Source of the DNA: Patescibacteria group bacterium
Lineage (GTDB): Bacteria; Omnitrophota; Gorgyraeia; Gygaellales; Profunditerraquicolaceae
Reading direction: 5' to 3'
NCBI GenBank assembly: GCA_035506195.1
Contig: DATJPV010000036.1
Location: forward strand, 16,100-80,099
DNA length: 64,000 nucleotides
The position numbers and the translations under genes are program-made. How positions within the stretch are numbered: position 1 is the first letter of the stretch; every line of letters begins with the position of its first letter. A model generated the notes under the pieces. It saw nothing but the letters and a program-made list of their open reading frames with translations. It searched no databases and was not told the origin of the DNA. Shown in pieces: positions 1,207 through 52,781 of the stretch.

Positions 1207-1785
1207 ATGAGAGACAGAATAAAAGACATATTCCTGGAAAGCATTCGAGTCAAAGAGGAGCTATTGCGTACGGGCCTTGGCCAGATAGTCGAGATCGCGG
1301 AACTGGCGATCAACTGCCTGGAAAAGGGCGGCAAGATGATCGTATTCGGTAACGGCGGTTCGGCCAGCGACAGCCAGCACATCGCGGCAGAATTAGTGGG
1401 CCGCTTCAAAAAGGACAGGGCGGGGCTTCCGGCAATTTCCTTGACTACGAACACCTCGATCCTGACCGCCGTGGCCAACGACTACGGGTACGAAGCGGTT
1501 TTCGCCAAACAGGTGGAAGCCCTGGCGCATAAGAACGACATCGCCATCGGGATATCCACCAGCGGCAAGGCCAAGAACGTCGCTGCCGCCATCAAGCAGG
1601 CAAAAAAGATGGGATTAAAGACCGTCGCGCTTACCGGCGGAGATGGCGGAGAATTGGCAAAATTAGCCGACGTCAGCCTGATCGTGCCTTCCACGGTCAC
1701 CGCCAGGATTCAGGAAGCGCATATCACCGTGGGGCATATCATATGCGAACTCGTAGAAGAGGAACTCTTTCAGGAACAAAAATAA
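1207..1785 (+). CDS. gmhA: D-sedoheptulose-7-phosphate isomerase (SIS domain)
   Basis: FGNGGSASDSQH...ISTSGKAKNV SIS/GmhA signature. Confidence 0.9.
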   Translation: MRDRIKDIFLESIRVKEELLRTGLGQIVEIAELAINCLEKGGKMIVFGNGGSASDSQHIAAELVGRFKKDRAGLPAISLTTNTSILTAVANDYGYEAVFAKQVEALAHKNDIAIGISTSGKAKNVAAAIKQAKKMGLKTVALTGGDGGELAKLADVSLIVPSTVTARIQEAHITVGHIICELVEEELFQEQK

Positions 1786-2261
1786 AATCCCTCGCGCAAT
1801 TGTCCGGGGTCATCAGCCGCCTGCGGGCCCGGGGCAGGCGTATCGTGTTTACCAACGGCTGTTTTGATATCGTGCATCACGGCCATACCCGTTATCTGGA
1901 AGCGGCAAAGGCCTGCGGCGACGTATTGGTTGTCGGCGTCAATAGCGACGCCTCAGTCAGGCGCATCAAAGGGCCCCGGCGGCCCCTCGTCTGCCAGAAG
2001 GACCGGGCGGCAGTTATCGCGGCTTTGGCCAGCGTCGATTACGTGGTGATTTTTAATGAAGATACGCCGCTTAAAACGATTCAACGCCTTAAGCCAGACG
2101 TGCTGGCGAAGGGGTCGGATTGGAGCAAGGGCGCGATCGTCGGCTCGGATGTCGTCTGCGCATCCGGCGGCAGCGTAGTAAGGCTCCCCCTGTTAGAGGG
2201 CCGTTCGACCACTAACTTGATCAAAAAAATTGCTAAAACCTACGTGTGCAAGCGCCGTTAA
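1743..2261 (+). CDS. hldE: D-glycero-beta-D-manno-heptose 1-phosphate adenylyltransferase (RfaE/HldE domain II, cytidylyltransferase fold)
   Basis: RIVFTNGCFDIVHHGHTRYL nucleotidyltransferase motif. The ORF start overlaps gmhA, so the true start is probably an internal TTG/GTG near 1798. Confidence 0.8.
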   Translation: MRTRRRGTLSGTKIKSLAQLSGVISRLRARGRRIVFTNGCFDIVHHGHTRYLEAAKACGDVLVVGVNSDASVRRIKGPRRPLVCQKDRAAVIAALASVDYVVIFNEDTPLKTIQRLKPDVLAKGSDWSKGAIVGSDVVCASGGSVVRLPLLEGRSTTNLIKKIAKTYVCKRR

Positions 2262-44615: not shown

Positions 44616-44933
44616 ATGCTAGAGGACCGCAGGTGTTTTTTCCGTTTCCCCGCAACCGTGCCGTTGCGCTACCAGGATAACGACGGCGGTGTGCAGGGAT
44701 GGGGAGAAACGCACGATATCAGCGCCAAGGGGATCGGTTTTTTCACCGATCGAGAGATGCCGCCTGACACAAGCCTTGATATATGCCTGCAGGTCCCCGA
44801 TAGGGAAGATGGAATCTGCGTAAAAGGCAGTATCGTATGGTCGCGCCTGGTTGCTCCGCAGCGCTACCGGGTCGGCGTAAGCCTGGAAAAAGTGGATTTC
44901 ATCAGCATGTCGCACGTGTTGCGTTTGGCCTAA
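44616..44933 (+). CDS. PilZ-domain protein
   Basis: RRCFFRFPATVPLRYQ...DISAKGIGF PilZ motifs. Confidence 0.7.
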   Translation: MLEDRRCFFRFPATVPLRYQDNDGGVQGWGETHDISAKGIGFFTDREMPPDTSLDICLQVPDREDGICVKGSIVWSRLVAPQRYRVGVSLEKVDFISMSHVLRLA

Positions 44934-45079
44934 TTTTTCTCGAAAAAGCAACGCCTGTAAGTTCCCTGCCAGCCAGGAAGCTAAGGAAGGGATAGCCGGG
45001 TTGCCGAAGGACAGAGGAGGACTTTTAACTTATCGGGCAACCCGGCTTTTTATAAGCTCAGAGTGCAAAGGGGATCATT

Positions 45080-45412
45080 ATGCGAGATTTGGTATTCAAA
45101 AACCTGACTTCCAGCGACCACAAACGCAGGATCGTTGCCAGTTCCGAGGTAGCGGACCGGCAAGGCGTGCGCAGCACTATCCACAGGCATTTTGTGTGCA
45201 TGGTCAAAGAAGTCAAGGATGCCAACATCCCCAAGCCGAACCCGTATTTATATGTGCTCAAACAACGCAATACTAAAGAACAAACGGAAAAGTTTTTTTG
45301 CCGGATAAAAGGAAGCCTTTATGCGGTCAACAAAGGCAAGCTCTTCCTGATTATTTTTACCCACTCCTTAAAGATCTGCCTCAAGCCCGTTCCTCAGGAT
45401 TTAATGGCGTAA
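45080..45412 (+). CDS. Hypothetical small protein in AT-rich spacer (may be non-coding)
   Basis: 110-aa ORF in a low-GC region with a weak ribosome-binding site and no recognisable domain. Confidence 0.25.
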   Translation: MRDLVFKNLTSSDHKRRIVASSEVADRQGVRSTIHRHFVCMVKEVKDANIPKPNPYLYVLKQRNTKEQTEKFFCRIKGSLYAVNKGKLFLIIFTHSLKICLKPVPQDLMA

Positions 45413-45558
45413 AGCCGCCTTTCGGGGGCTCCTCCAAAGAAAGCGTTTTCAGGTTGACAAAAAGCCAAATATCTGTTATACTTCCTTCAGACTTTTAAAA
45501 AGTATATATTACCGGGTGCCCTGATTAGGAGGAAATCAGGACACATACAGAAAATGTA

Positions 45559-45602
45559 TCCCGGATTGACAAAAAAAGGGTCGATCCGGGATTTTGTTTT
45601 TT
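45559..45602 (+). terminator. Rho-independent terminator
   Basis: 12-bp stem TCCCGGATTGAC / GTCGATCCGGGA with a 9-nt loop, followed by TTTTGTTTTTT. Confidence 0.7.
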
Positions 45603-45615
45603 GTATTTAAAGTCT

Positions 45616-45644
45616 TGACAAATAGAAATTTATATACTAAAATA
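45616..45644 (+). promoter_or_regulatory. Near-consensus sigma70 promoter for the surface-structure locus
   Basis: TTGACA (45616-45621), 17 nt, TAAAAT (45639-45644). About 60 nt upstream of the ATG at 45707, which is preceded by AAGGAG. Confidence 0.6.
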
Positions 45645-45706
45645 CTACCGAAACTAGGGAAAGGGTGAGTTGGTAAAACAGGTAATCAGGCGAAAGGAGT
45701 AAGAAG

Positions 45707-46306
45707 ATGGGGAAGTTGAAACTGGCGCTGTGCGCGGCGATGGCATTTGTGCTTGTGACCGGCGGCATGGCGTTTGCAGGGGAAAAGGTGTTGTTTGGAT
45801 TTGAGAAGGATATGGGCGGTTGGGAAATCCCCGACTGGGCAATGGAAAAGGAAGACTACGTAGGCACTAAGATCGAGCTATCGACCGCAGTTTTCAAAGA
45901 GGGAAAGTCTTGCCTTAAGCTCGACACCAAGTTCCCCGGAGGGAAATGGACTGCGGCTTATGTTGAGATCCAGCAATACTTCGATTGGACCGCTTACAGC
46001 GCGGTTGCGGTTGATGTCTATTTGCCGGAAACAGCACCGGTCGGCCTGAAATCAAAAATGATTTTGACCGTCGGCGAATCCTGGGCATGGGTCGAAATGG
46101 CACGCAGCACCGCTTTGGAGCCGGGAAAATGGACGACCATCACCGCTAATATCATGCCGGCTAGCACCGATTTTCGCGCTACGGTTGATGACGCCTTCAG
46201 GAAGGATATCCGCAAGGTCGGCGTCAGGATCGAATCCAATATGAAGCCCGTATATGAAGGGCCGGTGTATATTGACAATTTCAGATTGATTGAAGTAACC
46301 AAATAA
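45707..46306 (+). CDS. Secreted hypothetical protein, beta-sandwich/CBM-like
   Basis: Signal peptide MGKLKLALCAAMAFVLVTGGMAFAG. Aromatic-rich beta pattern (WEIPDW, WTAAYVEIQQYFDW). No catalytic motif. Confidence 0.5.
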   Translation: MGKLKLALCAAMAFVLVTGGMAFAGEKVLFGFEKDMGGWEIPDWAMEKEDYVGTKIELSTAVFKEGKSCLKLDTKFPGGKWTAAYVEIQQYFDWTAYSAVAVDVYLPETAPVGLKSKMILTVGESWAWVEMARSTALEPGKWTTITANIMPASTDFRATVDDAFRKDIRKVGVRIESNMKPVYEGPVYIDNFRLIEVTK

Positions 46307-46317
46307 CGAAGAGGGAG

Positions 46318-46902
46318 GTGAAACACATGATCAAATATGTAAAGATAATGATGTTGATTGGCTTAGGGCTAACGCTTGCGTATGCGCAAGCTTTCGCAGG
46401 GACCTCAACTGCTACAGCTACTGTTACGGCAACCGTGCCTTCAGTAACCACGGTTTCTCTTGCCCGTGATACCGGTTCAGCTACGCGCGGTTCAGCTAGC
46501 ACGATTATCTTCGATAAGCTGGATAGCCAGGACACGCCCGGTGGTGATGCGGGGTTGATGTACGCACCGTATCGTACTACCGAAAACGGCAAGAACTGGC
46601 ATTTCGCCAAGGTTGCGGCTAATGGCTCAACGTTGACATTAGCGCTTACCGTAAGCGGGACCGTAGGAGGCCAGCCGCTGTCGAACCTTTTGAAGGTTTA
46701 TTGCGGCGGTTTCTACCTGACAGGTTCTACGACCTTTATTAGCGGAACCAATTCAGCGGACTGGGAATTTGCCAGCGGTTGGCAGAGGACCTTGACTCAG
46801 GCGTTCATCGGGACAGTGCCGTTTAACTACCAGTTGAACGTTTCTGCCGTTGGTGCCGGTTCTTACTCCGGGTCGGTAACGTTTACCTTGACGACAACGT
46901 AG
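46318..46902 (+). CDS. Secreted fimbrial-subunit-like protein (spore-coat-U / DUF4402-like), putative major subunit
   Basis: Signal peptide ending AFAG. Mature N-terminus has an alternating TSTATATVTATVPSVTTVSL donor-strand-like segment. C-terminal GSYSGSVTFTLTTT strand. Followed by a stem-loop. Confidence 0.5.
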   Translation: MKHMIKYVKIMMLIGLGLTLAYAQAFAGTSTATATVTATVPSVTTVSLARDTGSATRGSASTIIFDKLDSQDTPGGDAGLMYAPYRTTENGKNWHFAKVAANGSTLTLALTVSGTVGGQPLSNLLKVYCGGFYLTGSTTFISGTNSADWEFASGWQRTLTQAFIGTVPFNYQLNVSAVGAGSYSGSVTFTLTTT

Positions 46903-46929
46903 TTATTCCTGCGTTGATTGTATGCATTT

Positions 46930-46966
46930 AATAGCTTGGGGCGGGTTTATCCTGCCCCAAGCTATT
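46930..46966 (+). terminator. Perfect 13-bp-stem hairpin between subunit genes 1 and 2 (no T-tract; attenuator/RNA-stability element)
   Basis: AATAGCTTGGGGC-(11 nt)-GCCCCAAGCTATT, ending 1 nt before the ATG at 46967. Confidence 0.5.
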
Positions 46967-47527
46967 ATGGCATATAAAGAAGGGTCGCTATTGAAGAAAC
47001 TAACATATTTTGCAGGTGCGCTGCTGGTATGTTTCTTGTTATACGCCCAGGCAGAGGCATTGGATTACAAAACTGACGATATCTCCGCCTCGGTGGAAGT
47101 ACTGCCTACCTTTGGTATCTCTCTCGATAATCTCAACCTTTATTTCGGCCTTATTCAGCCAGGCTCCACAAAAATATTAGGCGAGGGCACATTTTTCAAC
47201 CAGATCCACTGCCGTTCTAACTCCGGCCGGCCATGGTTCCTGAAGGCGCAGGTTGTTTCCCTGTCCCTGATGGAAAAACCGTATAAGGTGCCCGCCGGAA
47301 ATCTTAAATGGAAGGTTACGCAATGCACCGGTTCTGCGCAGCCGGCAGGCGGCTACGATTTTCAGTCGCTTACCGAAGAGCCGCTCCTTATGTATGCAAG
47401 TCAGGGAGATGACGACTTTGGCAAAGACGTAGTGCTATCTATGCAATATAGCCTGCAGTCGCCGTCCGATGCGCCGGCAGGCACGTATTCCGGCCAGATC
47501 GTTTTCACCATGGCAGAAAGCCCTTAA
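46967..47527 (+). CDS. Secreted fimbrial-subunit-like paralog 2
   Basis: Start moved to MAYKEG because the upstream part of ORF 46922 is the hairpin. Signal peptide ...YAQAEA. Alternating SASVEVLPTFGISL N-terminal segment. C-terminal AGTYSGQIVFTMAE. Paralogous to subunits 1 and 3 (shared CRS.NG...W.LK block). Confidence 0.5.
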   Translation: MAYKEGSLLKKLTYFAGALLVCFLLYAQAEALDYKTDDISASVEVLPTFGISLDNLNLYFGLIQPGSTKILGEGTFFNQIHCRSNSGRPWFLKAQVVSLSLMEKPYKVPAGNLKWKVTQCTGSAQPAGGYDFQSLTEEPLLMYASQGDDDFGKDVVLSMQYSLQSPSDAPAGTYSGQIVFTMAESP

Positions 47528-47530
47528 AGA

Positions 47531-48013
47531 ATGCTCAAAAAAATCATTATCTGCGCGTATATGTTGGCTTTGCCGGCGTTGGGGTATGCATCGCTGGAAC
47601 TGACTACCGACCACCGTTCGCTTTTCTTCGGGGCGATGCGCCTGGGGGAAGAAAAGGAGCTTGCGGATTTCGGCGGTTATCATAATGAAATTACCTGTCG
47701 TTCCACCAACGGGGCCATCTGGTACCTGAAGGTCAATCTCTTGCAGCCTTTAAGCTCGGGGGCCGACACGATCCCCGCGGAAAATCTTTCCTGGCAACTG
47801 ACTTGGACTAACGGTAACGGCACCAAGCCCGGCGGGGCGTATACCTATAAAAGCTTCAGCCTCATGCCTGACCTGGTTTACATAAGCGGGCCGGGTGAGT
47901 CGGCCGGCAACGGCATTACCTTGCAGTTCAAGTATTCCTTGAAGATCCCCGAAATTCAGCACAGCGGAGTATATAATGCGACTATCCGCTTTACCCTAAC
48001 GGAGATGTTTTGA
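47531..48013 (+). CDS. Secreted fimbrial-subunit-like paralog 3
   Basis: Signal peptide ...ALGYA; ITCRSTNGAIWYLKV block shared with paralog 2; C-terminal SGVYNATIRFTLTE. Confidence 0.5.
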   Translation: MLKKIIICAYMLALPALGYASLELTTDHRSLFFGAMRLGEEKELADFGGYHNEITCRSTNGAIWYLKVNLLQPLSSGADTIPAENLSWQLTWTNGNGTKPGGAYTYKSFSLMPDLVYISGPGESAGNGITLQFKYSLKIPEIQHSGVYNATIRFTLTEMF

Positions 48014-48786
48014 TGACAAAATATTGCCGTGCCCTGACGTGTATCCTATTGTGGTGTGCTGCGCTTATTGCGGAAGCTTACGCGTTCAGCATCGAGCCGG
48101 GCCGGATCGAACTGGCTATCCCCGCGGGCCGGCAGAGAGGCAAGACCGTTACGATAGACAATCGGGATTCGGATGAGTCCCTGCACTTGAAGATATACGC
48201 TACCGACGTGATCTTCCTGCCCGATGGTACGAATGACTTTCCGCAGGCCGGCGCTACTGCCTGGTCTTGCGTAAAATGGGTGCGGGTAACCCCCGATGAG
48301 ATCGATGTCCCCGCAAAAAAGACACAGACCGTACGCGTCAACGTCACGGTCCCGCAAGGGGCCCAGGGCGGCTATTACGGGATGCTTTTCTTTGAATCCG
48401 GCATGCCCAGCCCCGCTAAGGGGCTCAATATCAACTTCCGCGTGGGCGGCCTTGTCGATGTGTCCGTCCCGGGCACCGAACAGTTCAGCGCCAAGGTCGC
48501 GCATATCAGCCTGTCTAGCCCCAAGAAGATCGAGGTCGGGATCTTTAATGAAGGCAATGTGTTGGTCAGGCCCAAGGGCAAAGTGAAGATCATGGATGCC
48601 CGCGGCAAAAGAATAAAACAAATTGATTTTAACCCCGCGGGATGGGGAGTGCTGCCTCGCAGCCTGCGCAAACTATACGTGGACCTGGACAAGCCTTTGA
48701 CGAGCGGGCAGTATACTATCCGGGTCGAGATCAACTACGGAACGAAGTACTTGTTGGTAGGAGAATCTCCGGTGCAGGTGCAATGA
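48010..48786 (+). CDS. Periplasmic PapD-like chaperone candidate (pattern-based)
   Basis: Signal peptide. The N-terminal FSIEPGRIELAIPAGRQRGKTVTIDNRDSDESLHLKIY matches the PapD-family A1/B1 strand pattern. Two beta-rich halves. TGA overlaps the next ATG. Confidence 0.4.
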   Translation: MMTKYCRALTCILLWCAALIAEAYAFSIEPGRIELAIPAGRQRGKTVTIDNRDSDESLHLKIYATDVIFLPDGTNDFPQAGATAWSCVKWVRVTPDEIDVPAKKTQTVRVNVTVPQGAQGGYYGMLFFESGMPSPAKGLNINFRVGGLVDVSVPGTEQFSAKVAHISLSSPKKIEVGIFNEGNVLVRPKGKVKIMDARGKRIKQIDFNPAGWGVLPRSLRKLYVDLDKPLTSGQYTIRVEINYGTKYLLVGESPVQVQ

Positions 48787-51700
48787 TGGGCGGCCAATGG
48801 CCTAAAATAAAAAAAGTAGCGGCATTGGCAGTGGCGGCGGTTTTTCTTGTCAGCCACTGCGGGTTCGCCGGCGTTGTACCCGGCGCAATGGCCGCTGACT
48901 ATTTGTTCGAGGTCGGTAAGCATTTTTATGACCAGGGCCGTTATGCGGATGCGCTGCATGAGTTCCACAAGGCCCTCATGCTTAACCCCGTCCATAAAGA
49001 GGTGCTGCGGTATATCGGCCTGATCACCGGCGCTGCGCAAGAAGTCTACATGGAAAAAGGCGTGGCGGTAGGCGCCGAGGCTCCTGGCGCGCCCAGGCCC
49101 AAAAGAGCAGTCTCTCCGGTAGGAACCCCTTTGATAACGATGCCCGGGCAGGCGCCTGCCGTGGCGCCTGCCGTGCTGCCAAAGCCGCAAAAGTCCCGGG
49201 AACAGTCTCTGGCCGAAGCCTTGAACGCCCAAGAGGCCGCAGTGCACCCAGGGCCGCAGGTTCCGGCTAAACCCGTGGCGCCTGTTGTTGTTCCCCGCGC
49301 TGCCGTTACTCCCGCACCTGCTGTCCCCGCAGCAAAAGAAGAGGCCGCGGAAACAGAAGGCCCCCGCTTGAACCTGTCCGCCATACAGCCTGCAGCCGTC
49401 AAGAAAGCCGGCGAGATCAGCCTTTTCATCAACGGCCAGGAAGTTTCCCTTGAGGAAGCCGTCCTCTTTAAAGACGGCCAGATCCTGGTGCCCCTGAAAG
49501 CAATAGCCCCTAAGTTATACTATAACCTTTTAGACCTCCAGGGCGGAAAATTTTCGCTCATCAACCCGGAAGGCAAAGCCCGCGATATCGCCGCCGTGCT
49601 TCAAGACGGCAAGCCGATGCTCGATGAAGGGCAGATCCGGGAGTATTTTTCTGCCCGTACCCGTTATGACGCCCAAGCCAAGGCCTTTTACATCGATACC
49701 CAGGCAAGCCAGGGCCTGAAATTGTATGTCCTGGAAAGGCCGCCGGAAGAAATACAGAAAGAAGCCCAGCAGCAAAAAGTCATTGCGCAGGCAACCGCCG
49801 TTCCGGAAAAACCCTCTGTTATCCCCGATGCAGCCCGGCCTTCGCTGGATGTCAGAGGCAACCTCAATTACACGTATTTCAAATATCATGTACTTCCGGT
49901 ATATCACGACCTTTCCTCCAGCCTTTACGGCCGGCTTTACGATTACAACCTGGCTTACCGCTCGGAATATAAAGATATAAACGGGCCGGTAAAGAACGAT
50001 TATACGACCATGTCTTTGTCTAAGCCGGGCATATACTACGGATTTTTCGACCAGTCGGCAGACCTGTATCCGCTGCGCCTGCAGTCAAGCGAGTTTACCG
50101 GCATCAAGGTGGTCCGCTCCCGGAATGAACTGACCAATACGACCCTCTGGGGCGGCCAGACCGAGAATACCATTGCCGGCACAAGCGGTTCGGTCAAGTA
50201 CCTCGGCAAGCTCTTTGGGGCAAGCCAGGATTTTTCGCCTATATACTGGTTGCACCTGAAGGGCGGGATGCTCTACACGGATAATACCGCAGACCAGCCT
50301 TCCCAGGTCGGCACCACTTCATACCCTCGCCAGAATTTCGTTACGTATTCCAACATAGCGCTGCAGCTGCCGCAGAGCACTACGCTTACCCTTTCCGGAG
50401 CCCACTGTTATTATTATCCCGATTATGCCCCCGATAGCGTGGCGATCCAGGATTGGGATTGGCGCATCGGCACGAATACGAATAAGCCGCGCTATAGCCT
50501 CGGTTTTGCGTATGAGAGGGTCGGCGAAAATTACGTCTCTATCGGGGACTCCGGCATTTACCAGGATTACCAGGGATGGGACCTTTACGGCGGCTGGAGG
50601 CCCACTGACCACTGGTCCATATTCACCAACGCCTCGCAGTACCATGATAACGTCTCGGATGACCCCCAGTCGGTTACTACCTATGCATCCAATTACGGCC
50701 TGTCTTCCGCTTACCGCATTACCGGGGACCAGACCGTTAACCTTATGTACAACCATTTTGTTTCGAATCCCGAAGGTCCGGCAGCCGGCCCCAGCGGCGT
50801 CAGCAACGTCTACCGGATAGACTATTTCCTGCCGCTTTTTTATCAGGTCCGCGGCTCGCTGAACTATGCGCTTACTCACTCCGATTCCGGCGGCTCCTTC
50901 GATTACGACGCCCCCAGCATAGGCGGGACCTTGTTCAGGTCGTTTGGCCAGGGCTCCAGCTGGTACCTGAGCCAGCAGGCAACCAATACCCTTTACCGGA
51001 ACCGGCCGGATAGCCACGACTACACCACGACCTTTAACCTGTATTATGCCATCAATCCGCTTTTGGCCGCGTATTTCAACGCCTCCTATGTCAGGAATGA
51101 CACCGATGGGGCGCACTCCACGAATCAGCTCTCCGGTGCTTTAGGGACCAGGTATAGCCTGTTCCCGGATACCACGTTAAGCTTCGAGTACAGCATCAAT
51201 TCGTATGACTTGCGCACGGAAAGAGACCGCTGGCCGAAAAGCTGGTCCATGCTTTTCTACGTAGCGCAAGGGTTCCAGATCAAGACCTCCCCGAATTTCG
51301 GTACGCTTGAAGGCCGGGTTTTCCAGGACCTCAACGATAACGGCAGGTGGGATTCCGGCGAACCCGGGGTGGAGGGAGCGCTTGTATACCTGGACGACAG
51401 GAGAGAGGCGACTACCGATGCGCGCGGGTATTTCAAGATCAACTATATGAATCCGATCCCGCAAAAAGTGTACCTGGACCTGGCGACGGTACCGCCGGAA
51501 TGGATGACCGCCCAGACGGAACAGTGGGTCCAGGTCAAGCCCAGGCGGGCATCGACGGTCGTCTTTGCCTTGCGCAAGGCCGCCGGCATCAAAGGGCGCG
51601 TCTTTGTCGACCAGAACGGCGACGGCATCTTCCAGGAAACGGAAGAGCCGCTGGAAAGCGTGGTCTTAAAACTCTCCCCGGGCGATCATATCACCCAGAC

Positions 51701-51881
51701 CAACGCCGACGGAGAGTTCAAGTTCGAATCCCTGGCGCCGGGGCACTATGCCCTGTCGATCTCCCCGGACGGGATCCCGACGGGTTATGAACTTACCTCC
51801 AAATCGGAAATAAAAATGGACCTGGCCGCAGGGGCACAGGTCCATGATACCAACTTTGCTCTCAAGCTTTCTACCCGCTAA
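48783..51881 (+). CDS. Large outer-membrane protein: TPR-like N-term, Pro/Ala linker, Cu-amine-oxidase-N1-like domain, beta-barrel-like region, two C-terminal CnaB/SdrD-B-like beta-sandwich domains (usher-like domain order)
   Basis: Signal peptide MMGGQWPKIKKVAALAVAAVFLVSHCGFAG. A TPR-like segment (GRYADALHEFHKALMLNP), ISLFINGQEVSLEEAVLFKDGQILVPLKAIAP, about 530 aa rich in alternating Y/S/T/N/G, then two copies of GRVF.D.N.NG..D..E.G. The ORF track also starts in-frame at 48642. Confidence 0.5.
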   Translation: MMGGQWPKIKKVAALAVAAVFLVSHCGFAGVVPGAMAADYLFEVGKHFYDQGRYADALHEFHKALMLNPVHKEVLRYIGLITGAAQEVYMEKGVAVGAEAPGAPRPKRAVSPVGTPLITMPGQAPAVAPAVLPKPQKSREQSLAEALNAQEAAVHPGPQVPAKPVAPVVVPRAAVTPAPAVPAAKEEAAETEGPRLNLSAIQPAAVKKAGEISLFINGQEVSLEEAVLFKDGQILVPLKAIAPKLYYNLLDLQGGKFSLINPEGKARDIAAVLQDGKPMLDEGQIREYFSARTRYDAQAKAFYIDTQASQGLKLYVLERPPEEIQKEAQQQKVIAQATAVPEKPSVIPDAARPSLDVRGNLNYTYFKYHVLPVYHDLSSSLYGRLYDYNLAYRSEYKDINGPVKNDYTTMSLSKPGIYYGFFDQSADLYPLRLQSSEFTGIKVVRSRNELTNTTLWGGQTENTIAGTSGSVKYLGKLFGASQDFSPIYWLHLKGGMLYTDNTADQPSQVGTTSYPRQNFVTYSNIALQLPQSTTLTLSGAHCYYYPDYAPDSVAIQDWDWRIGTNTNKPRYSLGFAYERVGENYVSIGDSGIYQDYQGWDLYGGWRPTDHWSIFTNASQYHDNVSDDPQSVTTYASNYGLSSAYRITGDQTVNLMYNHFVSNPEGPAAGPSGVSNVYRIDYFLPLFYQVRGSLNYALTHSDSGGSFDYDAPSIGGTLFRSFGQGSSWYLSQQATNTLYRNRPDSHDYTTTFNLYYAINPLLAAYFNASYVRNDTDGAHSTNQLSGALGTRYSLFPDTTLSFEYSINSYDLRTERDRWPKSWSMLFYVAQGFQIKTSPNFGTLEGRVFQDLNDNGRWDSGEPGVEGALVYLDDRREATTDARGYFKINYMNPIPQKVYLDLATVPPEWMTAQTEQWVQVKPRRASTVVFALRKAAGIKGRVFVDQNGDGIFQETEEPLESVVLKLSPGDHITQTNADGEFKFESLAPGHYALSISPDGIPTGYELTSKSEIKMDLAAGAQVHDTNFALKLSTR

Positions 51882-51884
51882 CCT

Positions 51885-52106
51885 CTAGTTCTTCGCATAC
51901 GCGACCTGCGTATCCTCCTGTTGGTTCTGTTGCTCGGTTTTTTCCTCCTGCACAATCTGGGTTTGCGTTGCCGTCTCCCGCGCAGGGATGATGATGATGA
52001 CGGTGGCAGTAGCGCTTGCCTGTCCGGCATACACACAGTGGACCGGGATGCACAAAGATGCGAGCGTTGCGAATACGAGTATAAAGACTGTCAGTGTCTT
52101 TTTCAT
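51885..52106 (-). CDS. Small secreted peptide (73 aa) with donor-strand-like ATATVIIII motif and Gln/Glu/Thr-rich tail
   Basis: Strong ribosome-binding site AAGGAGG. Signal peptide ending VYAG. Mature N-terminus QASATATVIIIIPA resembles subunit 1 (TSTATATVTATV). Convergent with the outer-membrane-protein gene. Confidence 0.55.
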   Translation of the reverse strand: MKKTLTVFILVFATLASLCIPVHCVYAGQASATATVIIIIPARETATQTQIVQEEKTEQQNQQEDTQVAYAKN

Positions 52107-52207
52107 CTGTTGCCTCCTTTGAAAGTTTACGCCTTCAGGCCGTAAACTTTCAGGCGCTGGCGAAAGTCGGACGCCCGCCGGGTGTGGGCGTCCGGCTTAC
52201 AACCAGT

Positions 52208-52471
52208 TCACCTTCCGTGGCCGGTGGTGGTACGTTGTCCCAAAACCTCCAGGACCCGACTTTCAAAATCCCTTTCAGACTTTATATTTTCTCCGGTGAT
52301 CCCCAGGTCTTTGACGAAATCGATCACCCAGGCGATCAATTTTGCCCGGGAGACCTTCAGGCCGGTAGAAAAGAGGGCGTCTTTTCCCATCTTGTCCAGG
52401 AAATCCACTTCTTCCCGGTTCAGGAAGGTCACAACGCGCTGATTTTTTTCTTCGGCAAGCACTGCGTCCAT
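52208..52471 (-). CDS. Small cytoplasmic protein, possible ribbon-helix-helix (CopG/Arc-like) regulator
   Basis: GGAG ribosome-binding site. The QRVVTFLNREEVDFLDKMGKD segment fits an RHH beta-strand plus helix. Preferred over the overlapping + ORF 52094..52534. Confidence 0.45.
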   Translation of the reverse strand: MDAVLAEEKNQRVVTFLNREEVDFLDKMGKDALFSTGLKVSRAKLIAWVIDFVKDLGITGENIKSERDFESRVLEVLGQRTTTGHGR

Positions 52472-52726
52472 TTGAATCTCCTATATAATGAAAACGGCCC
52501 CGTTACATTTCTGGGGCCGCATAAAAAACCCTAAAGAGGTCTTTAGGGTTTTTCTCCTCTTTGGCAGCTCAGCCTCCCGCTTGCGCGGGACTGTAGCTTT
52601 GCGCCCCAGCATTACTGCTAGTTAGCCTTTATCAGTAGGTCTTCCTAATTGTCAATTCAAGTATAGCACATTGTGGTAAGATTTCAAGGTTGCCAAAAGA
52701 TTTTTTTTACATTTTACAAATTGCGC

Positions 52727-52781
52727 AAAAAACCCAGACCGTTTCTGGTTTTTTTAAAAACCAGAAACGGTCTGGGTTTTT
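52727..52781. repeat. Perfect 55-bp palindrome = two back-to-back hairpin+T-tract units (bidirectional terminator-like)
   Basis: AAAAAACCCAGACCGTTTCTGGTTTTTTT | AAAAACCAGAAACGGTCTGGGTTTTT; each half contains a CCAGA-CCGTT-TCTGG hairpin. Confidence 0.7.

Follow-up and report, generated by a model that had tools for sequence, protein, structure and literature searches.

Pam pili were described in the candidate phyla radiation (CPR) bacterium Ca. Mycosynbacter amalyticus, where cryo-electron microscopy (cryo-EM) of PamA/PamB filaments revealed subunits joined by donor-strand exchange (10.64898/2026.03.03.709456, preprint of June 2026). Four components are pilins (PamA, PamB, PamE and PamT), PamT being a single-domain tip pilin without a donor strand; PamC and PamD are membrane-anchored, FimC/PapD-like chaperones, and PamR is a terminator whose N-terminal strand is predicted to enter the last pilin. 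A trans-envelope machine was judged unnecessary, and the system was given as "exclusive to CPR", with its highest occurrence in the Saccharimonadia and the Microgenomatia (10.64898/2026.03.03.709456). Chaperone-usher pili (Fim, Pap, Csu, Ecp, CFA/I) are thought to be well catalogued by means of ushers and chaperones that Pfam models recognize. Here we analyze a locus of a 64,000-nucleotide stretch, called the window below (contig DATJPV010000036.1 of assembly GCA_035506195.1), in which six co-directional open reading frames (ORFs), A to F, occupy positions 45707–51881 of the + strand (Table 1). This locus probably encodes a surface pilus built by donor-strand exchange via a very divergent pathway of the chaperone-usher type, and the usual models miss this version, which occurs in the phylum Omnitrophota.

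Two further systems are relevant for comparison. In the WxL/WxLIP clusters of Firmicutes (DUF916-DUF3324) a proposal holds that the WxLIP protein contributes a hairpin strand to the WxL proteins it binds, and polymerisation is not reported (PMC10599100). The TLP-1a/b fibrils were found in pond water (CryoSeek, Tsinghua Lotus Pond; PDB 9IKJ/9IKK); their producer and assembly machinery are unknown, and the best AFDB match comes from Flavobacteriales (PMC11494351).

A preliminary description of the locus had proposed, in order, a secreted carbohydrate-binding-module (CBM)-like protein (A), three paralogous secreted subunit-like proteins (B, C and D), a PapD-pattern periplasmic protein (E) and a large outer-membrane protein (F), and we found these co-directional genes and the associated sequence features where it had placed them. 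Genes D and E, and likewise E and F, overlap by 4 nt, and C is separated from D by 3 nt; because of these junctions the arrangement A–F is, as read from the DNA, the layout of a translationally coupled operon. Scans with Pfam and NCBIfam matched no usher, PapD or fimbrial model above cut-off with any component, in agreement with the earlier remark that strong matches to canonical components are lacking, and B, C, D and E reached no family of either collection above cut-off. The NCBI entries for the identical proteins (HTY45648.1 and HTY45647.1) name F a "SdrD B-like domain-containing protein" and E a hypothetical protein. Comparisons of the subunits, of E and of F, presented in turn below, nevertheless support the divergent chaperone-usher-like system that had been suggested.

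Subunits B, C and D

The proteins C and D share 33% sequence identity, and the B family aligns with the C/D family with an hhalign probability of 98% (E = 1.8e-13). On these alignments B, C and D are true paralogs of one fold, as proposed before. An exhaustive HMMER search over 1.84 billion representatives recovered 165 relatives, mostly 155–200 residues in length and provided with a signal peptide, across which the C-terminal motif AG.Y....(F/Y)T(M/L)TE is kept; this is the strand that had been recognized as fimbrial-type. Members bearing an N-terminal extension and members devoid of it are both common in this set. Alignment of the orthologs reveals the extension in all C and B proteins and in no D protein. 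In C orthologs it comprises about 18 extra residues of the mature N-terminus (consensus EALE....LSASVEVAPVF; about 19 residues, EALDYKTDDISASVEVLPT, in the window), at the place of which B proteins have ATSTATATVSATVPS, the extension of B in the window being AGTSTATATVTATVPS. Orthologs of B occur at the same position in L002, L005–L008 and L010 (L numbers designate loci of the comparison). Mature D orthologs begin exactly at the first core strand.

The structure of mature C was predicted with AlphaFold2, using library representatives as the alignment. The model (pLDDT 96.4, pTM 0.85) contains eight strands after residues 1–19, and its Foldseek neighbours in the PDB are mainly subunits of donor-strand-exchange fibres (TLP-1b, CsuA/B, Fim and Pap pilins, archaeal threads, TasA), which account for about half of the top 30 and for seven of the first ten, bearing out the earlier comparison with pilins. 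The best neighbour is the TLP-1b fibril protomer (PDB 9IKK). The TLP-1 fibre is built by means of an N-terminal donor strand, as the present one would be, whereas identity between TLP-1 and the subunit is 14%, a sequence profile detects no similarity, and the TLP-1 protomer is 237 residues in length and receives its strand from protomer n+4 within a tubular helix. Loci of the present type are candidates for the gene clusters behind TLP-1 and other orphan fibrils of the environment.

At the sequence level, the last two strands of the subunit profile can be aligned with type-1 pilins of E. coli (hhalign 79.8%, E = 1.5e-5), and a profile search of the PDB with the subunits gave no significant relative. 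A Pfam scan of 77 subunits returned no family match and no WxL domain, with weak DUF4402 similarity in five. Of the archaic or sigma-type (Csu, SCPU, DUF4402) logic attributed to the locus, the divergent chaperone-usher-like character is retained and a specific affinity for any of these three is not.

B, C and D thus combine an incomplete immunoglobulin (Ig)-like fold with an N-terminal extension in two of the proteins and its absence in the third, the putative tip subunit. The simplest reading is that C and B are strand donors. Because D has no N-terminal extension, as is the case in tip pilins, it is a candidate tip subunit which would accept a strand and donate none, by analogy with FimH, PapG and PamT; B is a candidate for the major subunit and C for the adaptor. 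Tandem subunit chains of two or three domains (about 330 and 460 residues; P0083, P0139, P0143 and others) were also encountered, and may represent "pre-joined" subunits; such chains replace the separate B, C and D genes in L013 (5630–7117) and L011 (2–769). B, C and D have signal peptides without a lipobox Cys, which led us to reject an assignment to the type V pili of Bacteroidota.

The two-domain protein E

E carries a signal peptide, and its second domain reaches the C-terminus, leaving no hydrophobic tail or membrane anchor; its sequence suggests two Ig-like domains, as in a periplasmic chaperone. There are 37 close clusters in its family, at 47–100% identity. Aligned with FimC, YadV, SfmC, EcpB and EcpE, E gives an hhalign probability of 55% (E = 1.2e-4) over 149 columns, which cover domain 1 and the start of domain 2; mismatched controls gave 15.6% for E against pilins and 2.2% for the subunits against chaperones. 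The alignment of the E family with two-domain CPR proteins anchored by a transmembrane (TM) segment reaches 99.5% (E = 7.5e-23, 220 columns), and this CPR family in its turn aligns with five E. coli chaperones at 77.7% (E = 1.9e-5). Distant relatives of E are found in CPR (Levybacteria), in Methylomirabilota and in metagenome-assembled genomes (MAGs) labelled "Gammaproteobacteria". Loci of the Levybacteria type (L014–L022) contain two E-like proteins of about 310–330 residues, with a C-terminal TM helix, which alternate with secreted proteins of about 370–400 residues; the subunit HMM (Hidden Markov Model) matches the C-terminal domain of the latter (E = 2e-8 to 5e-4). Sequence-profile searches of the PDB with E and with the CPR pilin-like proteins gave no significant relative. 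Judged by these alignments, E is the soluble member of a family that is membrane-anchored in CPR, and it is plausible that the E family is a remote relative of PapD. The PapD pattern ascribed to E may therefore hold: homology with two-Ig-domain, chaperone-like CPR proteins and weak but specific alignments with the PapD family (55% and 78%) speak for it, and Pfam recognizes no PapD domain. Several of the Pam-like loci are labelled "uncultured Gammaproteobacteria".

Sub-threshold Pfam matches in the E family bear on a different interpretation, in which the locus would specify a non-polymerising surface complex similar to WxL/WxLIP: E would present a few subunits, perhaps together with A, F would serve as export pore or anchor only, and no long fibre would be formed. 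Such matches concern WxLIP_PGBD in 24 of 35 members; others go to Ig domains of the PapD-like/ASH kind (Cep192_D6 in 30 of 35, OCRL-ASH) and to fn3_5 and FlgD_ig. For WxLIP_PGBD the best E value within the family is 0.0024, the protein of L017 scores 26.5 bits against a cut-off of 27.3, and the CPR homologs reach E = 7e-6, likewise below threshold; EfmWxLIP1 is among the best PDB profile matches of E without being significant, and no match to DUF3324 was found in the E family. The two systems share the juxtaposition of small, secreted, beta-rich proteins and a two-Ig-domain protein, and for WxLIP strand insertion was proposed with no polymerisation reported (PMC10599100). On the other hand, the subunits here have neither a WxL domain (none in 77 Pfam-scanned sequences) nor Trp-x-Leu motifs, a TM helix is missing from E, peptidoglycan is the presumed ligand of WxL proteins, and WxL clusters are without an outer-membrane component. 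The structural neighbours of C are fibre subunits in the proportions given above and not WxL-type proteins, the division of subunits into those with and those without an N-terminal extension is what a head-to-tail polymer requires, and those CPR relatives whose features agree with Pam are part of a system for which cryo-EM showed filaments. We therefore consider a complex of this kind unlikely.

The outer-membrane protein F

Homologs of F were collected with the barrel region as query and ten of them were used for AlphaFold2, which gave a model of medium confidence (mean pLDDT 64.8). Following the signal peptide, the model consists of TPR-like helices (residues 37–82), a disordered Pro/Ala linker (84–209), a beta/alpha domain (210–306), a helix (323–337), some 24–26 long antiparallel strands (355–848, pLDDT about 70–88) and two SdrD_B/CnaB-like sandwiches (about 850–1032). 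The order predicted before, an N-terminal domain followed by a large barrel and two C-terminal beta-sandwiches, is thus recovered, and with a barrel of about 24 strands it corresponds, in the model, to the architecture of ushers.

Searched with Foldseek against the whole PDB, the model finds full-length FimD or PapC structures as its best nine matches (E = 4.6e-18 to 1.7e-13), which agrees with the proposed role of F as a beta-barrel usher. TonB-dependent receptors follow at E = 1e-8 or worse, and ushers score 5–10 orders of magnitude better than other outer-membrane barrels. Usher fragments that contain the barrel only are matched at about 2e-6; since full-length ushers far outscore them, the flanking domains seem to contribute to the similarity. 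Sequence comparison is less telling. Four ushers of E. coli align weakly with F in hhalign (22%, E = 9e-4), in colinear fashion from the second half of the barrel through the first C-terminal domain. Neither Usher (PF00577) nor PapC_N nor PapC_C is matched in Pfam; scans with Pfam and NCBIfam return only SdrD_B (above the Pfam cut-off, E = 5.9e-17), CarboxypepD_reg and TPR, and a profile of 10 F homologs run against PDB sequences retrieved TPR and SdrD only and no usher.

The domains recognized by Pfam invite the view that F is a barrel of the PgaA/BcsC/PelB or of the Oar/SusC type within an apparatus for glycan capture, uptake or export, in which A would bind the glycan and B–E would be accessory surface proteins. 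An N-terminal TPR region and a CarboxypepD_reg-like domain in F, the CBM-like nature of A and the location of L028 and L009 next to GH94, GT2 and sugar-binding-protein genes are in line with it. Yet A is missing from many loci, the TPR region is missing in two F homologs (P0047 and P0048), the conserved core contains no synthase, no glycosyltransferase and no TonB-box or plug feature, and Foldseek places ushers far above both TonB-dependent receptors and polysaccharide exporters. A glycan apparatus appears very improbable to us.

F might also stand outside fibre formation altogether. The subunit and E co-occur without F in monoderm CPR genomes, where E is membrane-anchored, and no F-like protein was found in the CPR loci examined. 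This pairing matches the arrangement of the imaged Pam pili and is for that reason counted in favour of a donor-strand fibre; it also suits a fibre that bypasses F, assembled either by a chaperone, as proposed for Pam, or without one, as in TasA and the archaeal cannulae, with F unrelated or anchoring. That no plug is recognizable in F, and that the Pam preprint dispenses with a trans-envelope machine, would fit as well. Four points run counter to such a bypass: F is translationally coupled to E, it follows E in every sufficiently long Omnitrophota locus, a diderm needs an outer-membrane conduit to bring a periplasmically folded subunit to the surface, and the best structural matches of F are ushers. 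We hold a bypass of F to be quite unlikely.

Proposed assembly and the mini-protein G

The preferred reading, a fibre assembled by donor-strand exchange through F, starts from what was observed directly, namely the order of the genes, the relationship of the subunits as paralogs, the distribution of the extension among them, the fold similarity of C and of F, and the homology between E and CPR proteins. B, C and D would be exported by Sec and adopt Ig-like folds that are each one strand short; the soluble, two-domain E would lend the missing strand in the periplasm and keep the subunits competent for assembly. The barrel of F would then take up the E–subunit complexes and thread the growing fibre outward. 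D, having no donor strand, would enter first and form the tip, followed by C and then by many copies of B, each N-terminal extension filling the preceding subunit. In loci that have it, A may lend glycan binding to the fibre or the cell.

A seventh gene, absent from the preliminary description, belongs to the locus as well. G encodes a small secreted protein with a signal peptide, one hydrophobic strand (ATATVIIIIPAR) and an acidic tail. Its homologs, of 70–120 residues, lie on the opposite strand directly after F in all 12 aligned loci, that is, in all loci extending past F except the divergent L011 and L012. Conservation is confined to about 15 residues of the mature N-terminus, A.A(T/Y)A(S/Q)(V/I)(L/I)IIIPxR, the tail being variable and acidic, and the strand resembles the extension of B in the window (ATATVIIIIP in G against ATATVTATVP in B). 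By analogy with PamR and the N-terminal strand it is predicted to supply to the last pilin, we put forward, as a hypothesis only, that G is a strand-donating terminator or anchor of the fibre; it may fill the last groove and so stop or anchor the growing polymer.

Several points weigh against this model. All of the evidence is computational, consisting of sequences and predicted structures, and that the host is a diderm follows from its phylum and not from the window. PapD_N and PapD_C find no match in 35 members of the E family, whose similarity to the PapD family reaches only 55% in hhalign. Ushers need a plug domain, and none is seen between the barrel strands of the F model, where residues 415–436 and 581–611 are low-confidence loops; the N-terminal domain or the helix at 323–337 might act as a different gate. 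Finally, DSSP does not call residues 1–19 of the C monomer model, the proposed donor segment, a strand.

Relation to known systems

By sequence, the closest relatives of the locus appear to be the Pam-like systems of CPR and not sigma-fimbriae. Both Pam and the present system have Sec-exported Ig-like pilins for joining by donor-strand exchange, fibre formation being deduced from the genes in our case; PamT, without donor strand, would correspond to D, the two-Ig-domain chaperones PamC and PamD to E and, hypothetically, PamR to G. Homologs of E occur, with the 99.5% probability cited above, in the Levybacteria-type loci, which fit Pam by its published description. The differences are nonetheless considerable. 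The host here is a diderm outside CPR, E has no TM helix whereas PamC and PamD are anchored by a C-terminal one, and a usher-like barrel of about 1000 residues, coupled to E, is present. Pam pilins are two-domain proteins with an internal linker donor strand, while B, C and D are single-domain proteins of 160–200 residues with an N-terminal donor segment in B and C; PamR is membrane-anchored with two FnIII domains, G a peptide of about 45 residues.

With chaperone-usher systems the locus shares the order subunits, chaperone, usher, as in csuA/B-A-B-C-D, the subunit fold, a Gly and an aromatic residue in the motif of the C-terminal strand, a putative tip subunit without N-terminal extension, and the domain order of F, for which FimD and PapC are the best Foldseek matches. 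It differs in that the Usher, PapD_N, PapD_C, Fimbrial and SCPU models of Pfam/NCBIfam are unmatched, in the identity of about 10% between F and ushers, in the lack of an inserted plug in the F model, and in the N-terminus of F, where TPR, a disordered linker of about 125 residues and a Cu_amine_oxidN1-like domain stand in place of PapC_N. The C-terminal domains of F are of the SdrD_B/CnaB type, and G is an extra, strand-only mini-protein.

Measured by sequence, then, the locus fails membership of the classical chaperone-usher and WxL/WxLIP systems, and it is without features that define Pam. Since the E and subunit proteins of Omnitrophota are homologous to Levybacteria-type components, it seems best placed as a diderm relative of Pam, in which the chaperone would have lost, or never had, its anchor and a usher-like barrel would have been added. 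A bolder proposal, which we advance tentatively and consider rather doubtful, is that of a deep, unrecognised strand-exchange branch linking diderm chaperone-usher systems with the usher-less Pam of monoderms, and distantly with WxL/WxLIP; its novelties would be a plug-less usher, a terminator or anchor (G) of about 45 residues and control by a dedicated RNA with an exposed AGGAGG loop. If there is such a branch, pili of the Pam type are not exclusive to CPR, and the usher was gained or lost together with the outer membrane. The clear homology of E with membrane-anchored, chaperone-like CPR proteins leads to a testable hypothesis, namely that one ancient strand-exchange module was combined with a pore of the outer membrane in diderms, and with an anchor in the membrane in monoderms. 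In either view Pam-type pili would extend beyond CPR, and the claim of their exclusiveness would need revision.

Conservation of the locus and its host

The order B-C-D-E-F, with overlapping stop and start codons, is kept in L001–L010 and L028–L030, and together with the convergent G it is found in every related Omnitrophota locus of sufficient length, the divergent L011–L013 apart. In these three the subunit gene or genes precede an E-like and then an F-like gene; the sequences of L011 and L012 continue beyond F and show a small minus-strand ORF there. In L002 and L003 the block stands between lepA-lepB-pgsA-plsY-PilZ-X and gatCAB, as it does in the window; L030 has the same lepA...gatCAB placement with the order of X and PilZ swapped, and L013 occupies the same plsY-X position. 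L028 carries the locus elsewhere, beside genes for a GH94 enzyme, a GT2 enzyme and a sugar-binding protein.

Because gene order and chromosomal position recur in relatives, the block is a lineage-typical operon and not an accessory island. The description of the block as accessory-looking is accordingly abandoned, and with it horizontal acquisition: GC content of the block is ordinary, and the synteny with lepA...PilZ and gatCAB persists in relatives whose E is 58–63% identical, the same genes being present at the same position in distant relatives.

Clear relatives of E (27–54% identity) come for the most part from loci of Candidatus Omnitrophota/Omnitrophica MAGs, two being from uncultured Planctomycetia. 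We infer that the host is a member of Omnitrophota; the NCBI label "Patescibacteria group bacterium" is probably a misclassification, given that the close relatives and the synteny are found in Candidatus Omnitrophota MAGs. Such loci are thus carried by a phylum of ultrasmall, possibly host-dependent bacteria. Omnitrophota have been described with outer-membrane secretins (PMC10066038), and only type IV and Tad pili were previously listed for them (PMC10066038); the present loci supply candidate attachment organelles. A literature search found no paper linking Omnitrophota with chaperone-usher systems. Elsewhere in the window (1207–2261, + strand) two ORFs resemble, by eye, the phosphoheptose isomerase GmhA and the adenylyltransferase domain of RfaE; they would serve heptose synthesis for a lipopolysaccharide core or an S-layer, which fits a diderm envelope.

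Upstream spacer and small RNA

The GC content of the AT-rich spacer of the preliminary description (45413–45706) is about 0.46, that of its flanks about 0.55. The spacer contains two promoter-like sites, each identical to the sigma-70 consensus at 11 of 12 positions, which flank a small structured RNA (Table 1) that had not been reported before. P1 would drive the small RNA, and P2 is likely the promoter of the operon. The strong terminator announced earlier (45558–45603) forms a 13-bp stem (CCGGATTGAC..GTCGATCCGG) followed by a U-run, with a folding energy of -23.3 kcal/mol (z = -4.6) that none of 200 shuffled sequences attained.

L002 and L013 have this module (P1, RNA, P2) in almost the same layout, and it always separates gene X (or PilZ) from the fibre operon. 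In the alignment with these two loci both P1 hexamers, -35 and -10, are invariant, and sites of the form TTGACA-17-TATAAT, equivalent to P2, follow the terminator in both. RNAalifold proposes 27 pairs for the small RNA, 6 of them compensatory. The covariance model R1 detected a fourth copy in L030 (59.7 bits, E = 1.4e-10), in which the sequence of the stem differs and is fully compensated and the loop is unchanged. The RNA matches no Rfam family; it could be a small regulatory RNA (a CsrA-type sponge or an anti-Shine-Dalgarno mimic) or an attenuator. A candidate c-di-GMP-I-GGC riboswitch after PilZ (44939–45009, + strand) was rejected, its score of 19.7 bits against a gathering threshold of 59 (E = 0.06) being probably due to chance, and the corresponding positions of L002 and L013 gave no such match. 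A small terminator-like hairpin lies downstream of this match, at 45033–45045.

Protein A and neighbouring genes

Coordinates are collected in Table 1.

Table 1. Features of the fibre locus and its flanks in the window, with equivalents in related loci (numbered within each locus).
Feature	Position	Strand	Description
PilZ gene	44616–44933		Pfam PilZ, E = 1.2e-12
X	45080–45412	+	110 aa; between the PilZ gene and the operon
P1 (promoter-like)	45454–45482	+	TTGACA-17-TATACT, extended TG
Small structured RNA or leader	45489–45603	+	about 115 nt; AGGAGG-loop hairpin, then intrinsic terminator and U-run
P2 (promoter-like)	45615–45643	+	TTGACA-17-TAAAAT
A	45707–46306	+	199 aa
B	46318–46902	+	194 aa
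C	46922–47527	+	start probably 46967; mature protein about 157 aa
D	47531–48013	+	160 aa
E	48010–48786	+	258 aa
F	48783–51881	+	1032 aa
G	51885–52106	-	73 aa; secreted mini-protein, convergent to F
H	52208–52471	-	87 aa; cytoplasmic; adjoins G
Bidirectional terminator-like hairpin	52733–52776	.	20-bp stem; closes the block before gatC
X equivalent, L002	7743–8096		
X equivalent, L013	5169–5504		
X equivalent, L030	3638–3988		
RNA copy, L002	8159–8274		
RNA copy, L013	5581–5683		
RNA copy, L030	4388–4503		

The first gene of the operon, A, encodes a secreted protein that is CBM-like by its Pfam matches, as had been stated: Mann_GBD_bact is reached at 32.2 bits against a cut-off of 27 (E = 1.4e-7) and CBM27, also above cut-off, at E = 7e-5. 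It is optional, being present in the window, in L009 (three copies), L028 and L030 and missing from L002. In L028 (1–4469) genes for a GH94 phosphorylase, a GT2 enzyme and a sugar-binding protein precede the fibre operon; in L009 (1–5736) the three CBM-like A paralogs, a ROK-like regulator (identified by eye) and a lipoprotein sugar-binding protein do so. Such carbohydrate genes hint that the fibre has to do with the binding of glycans.

H matches no Pfam family and may be a regulator of the ribbon-helix-helix type, an N-terminal "QRVVTFLNREEVDFLDK" being followed, by eye, by two helices. In L001, L002, L004 and L011 the locus adjoins an ortholog of H with 52–69% identity; in L028–L030 a gene of corresponding size and position is called. 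X, likewise without a Pfam family and without a signal peptide, has orthologs of 65–66% identity in L002 and L013, which always adjoin plsY/PilZ and the fibre operon, and L030 has a gene of matching size at the equivalent place.

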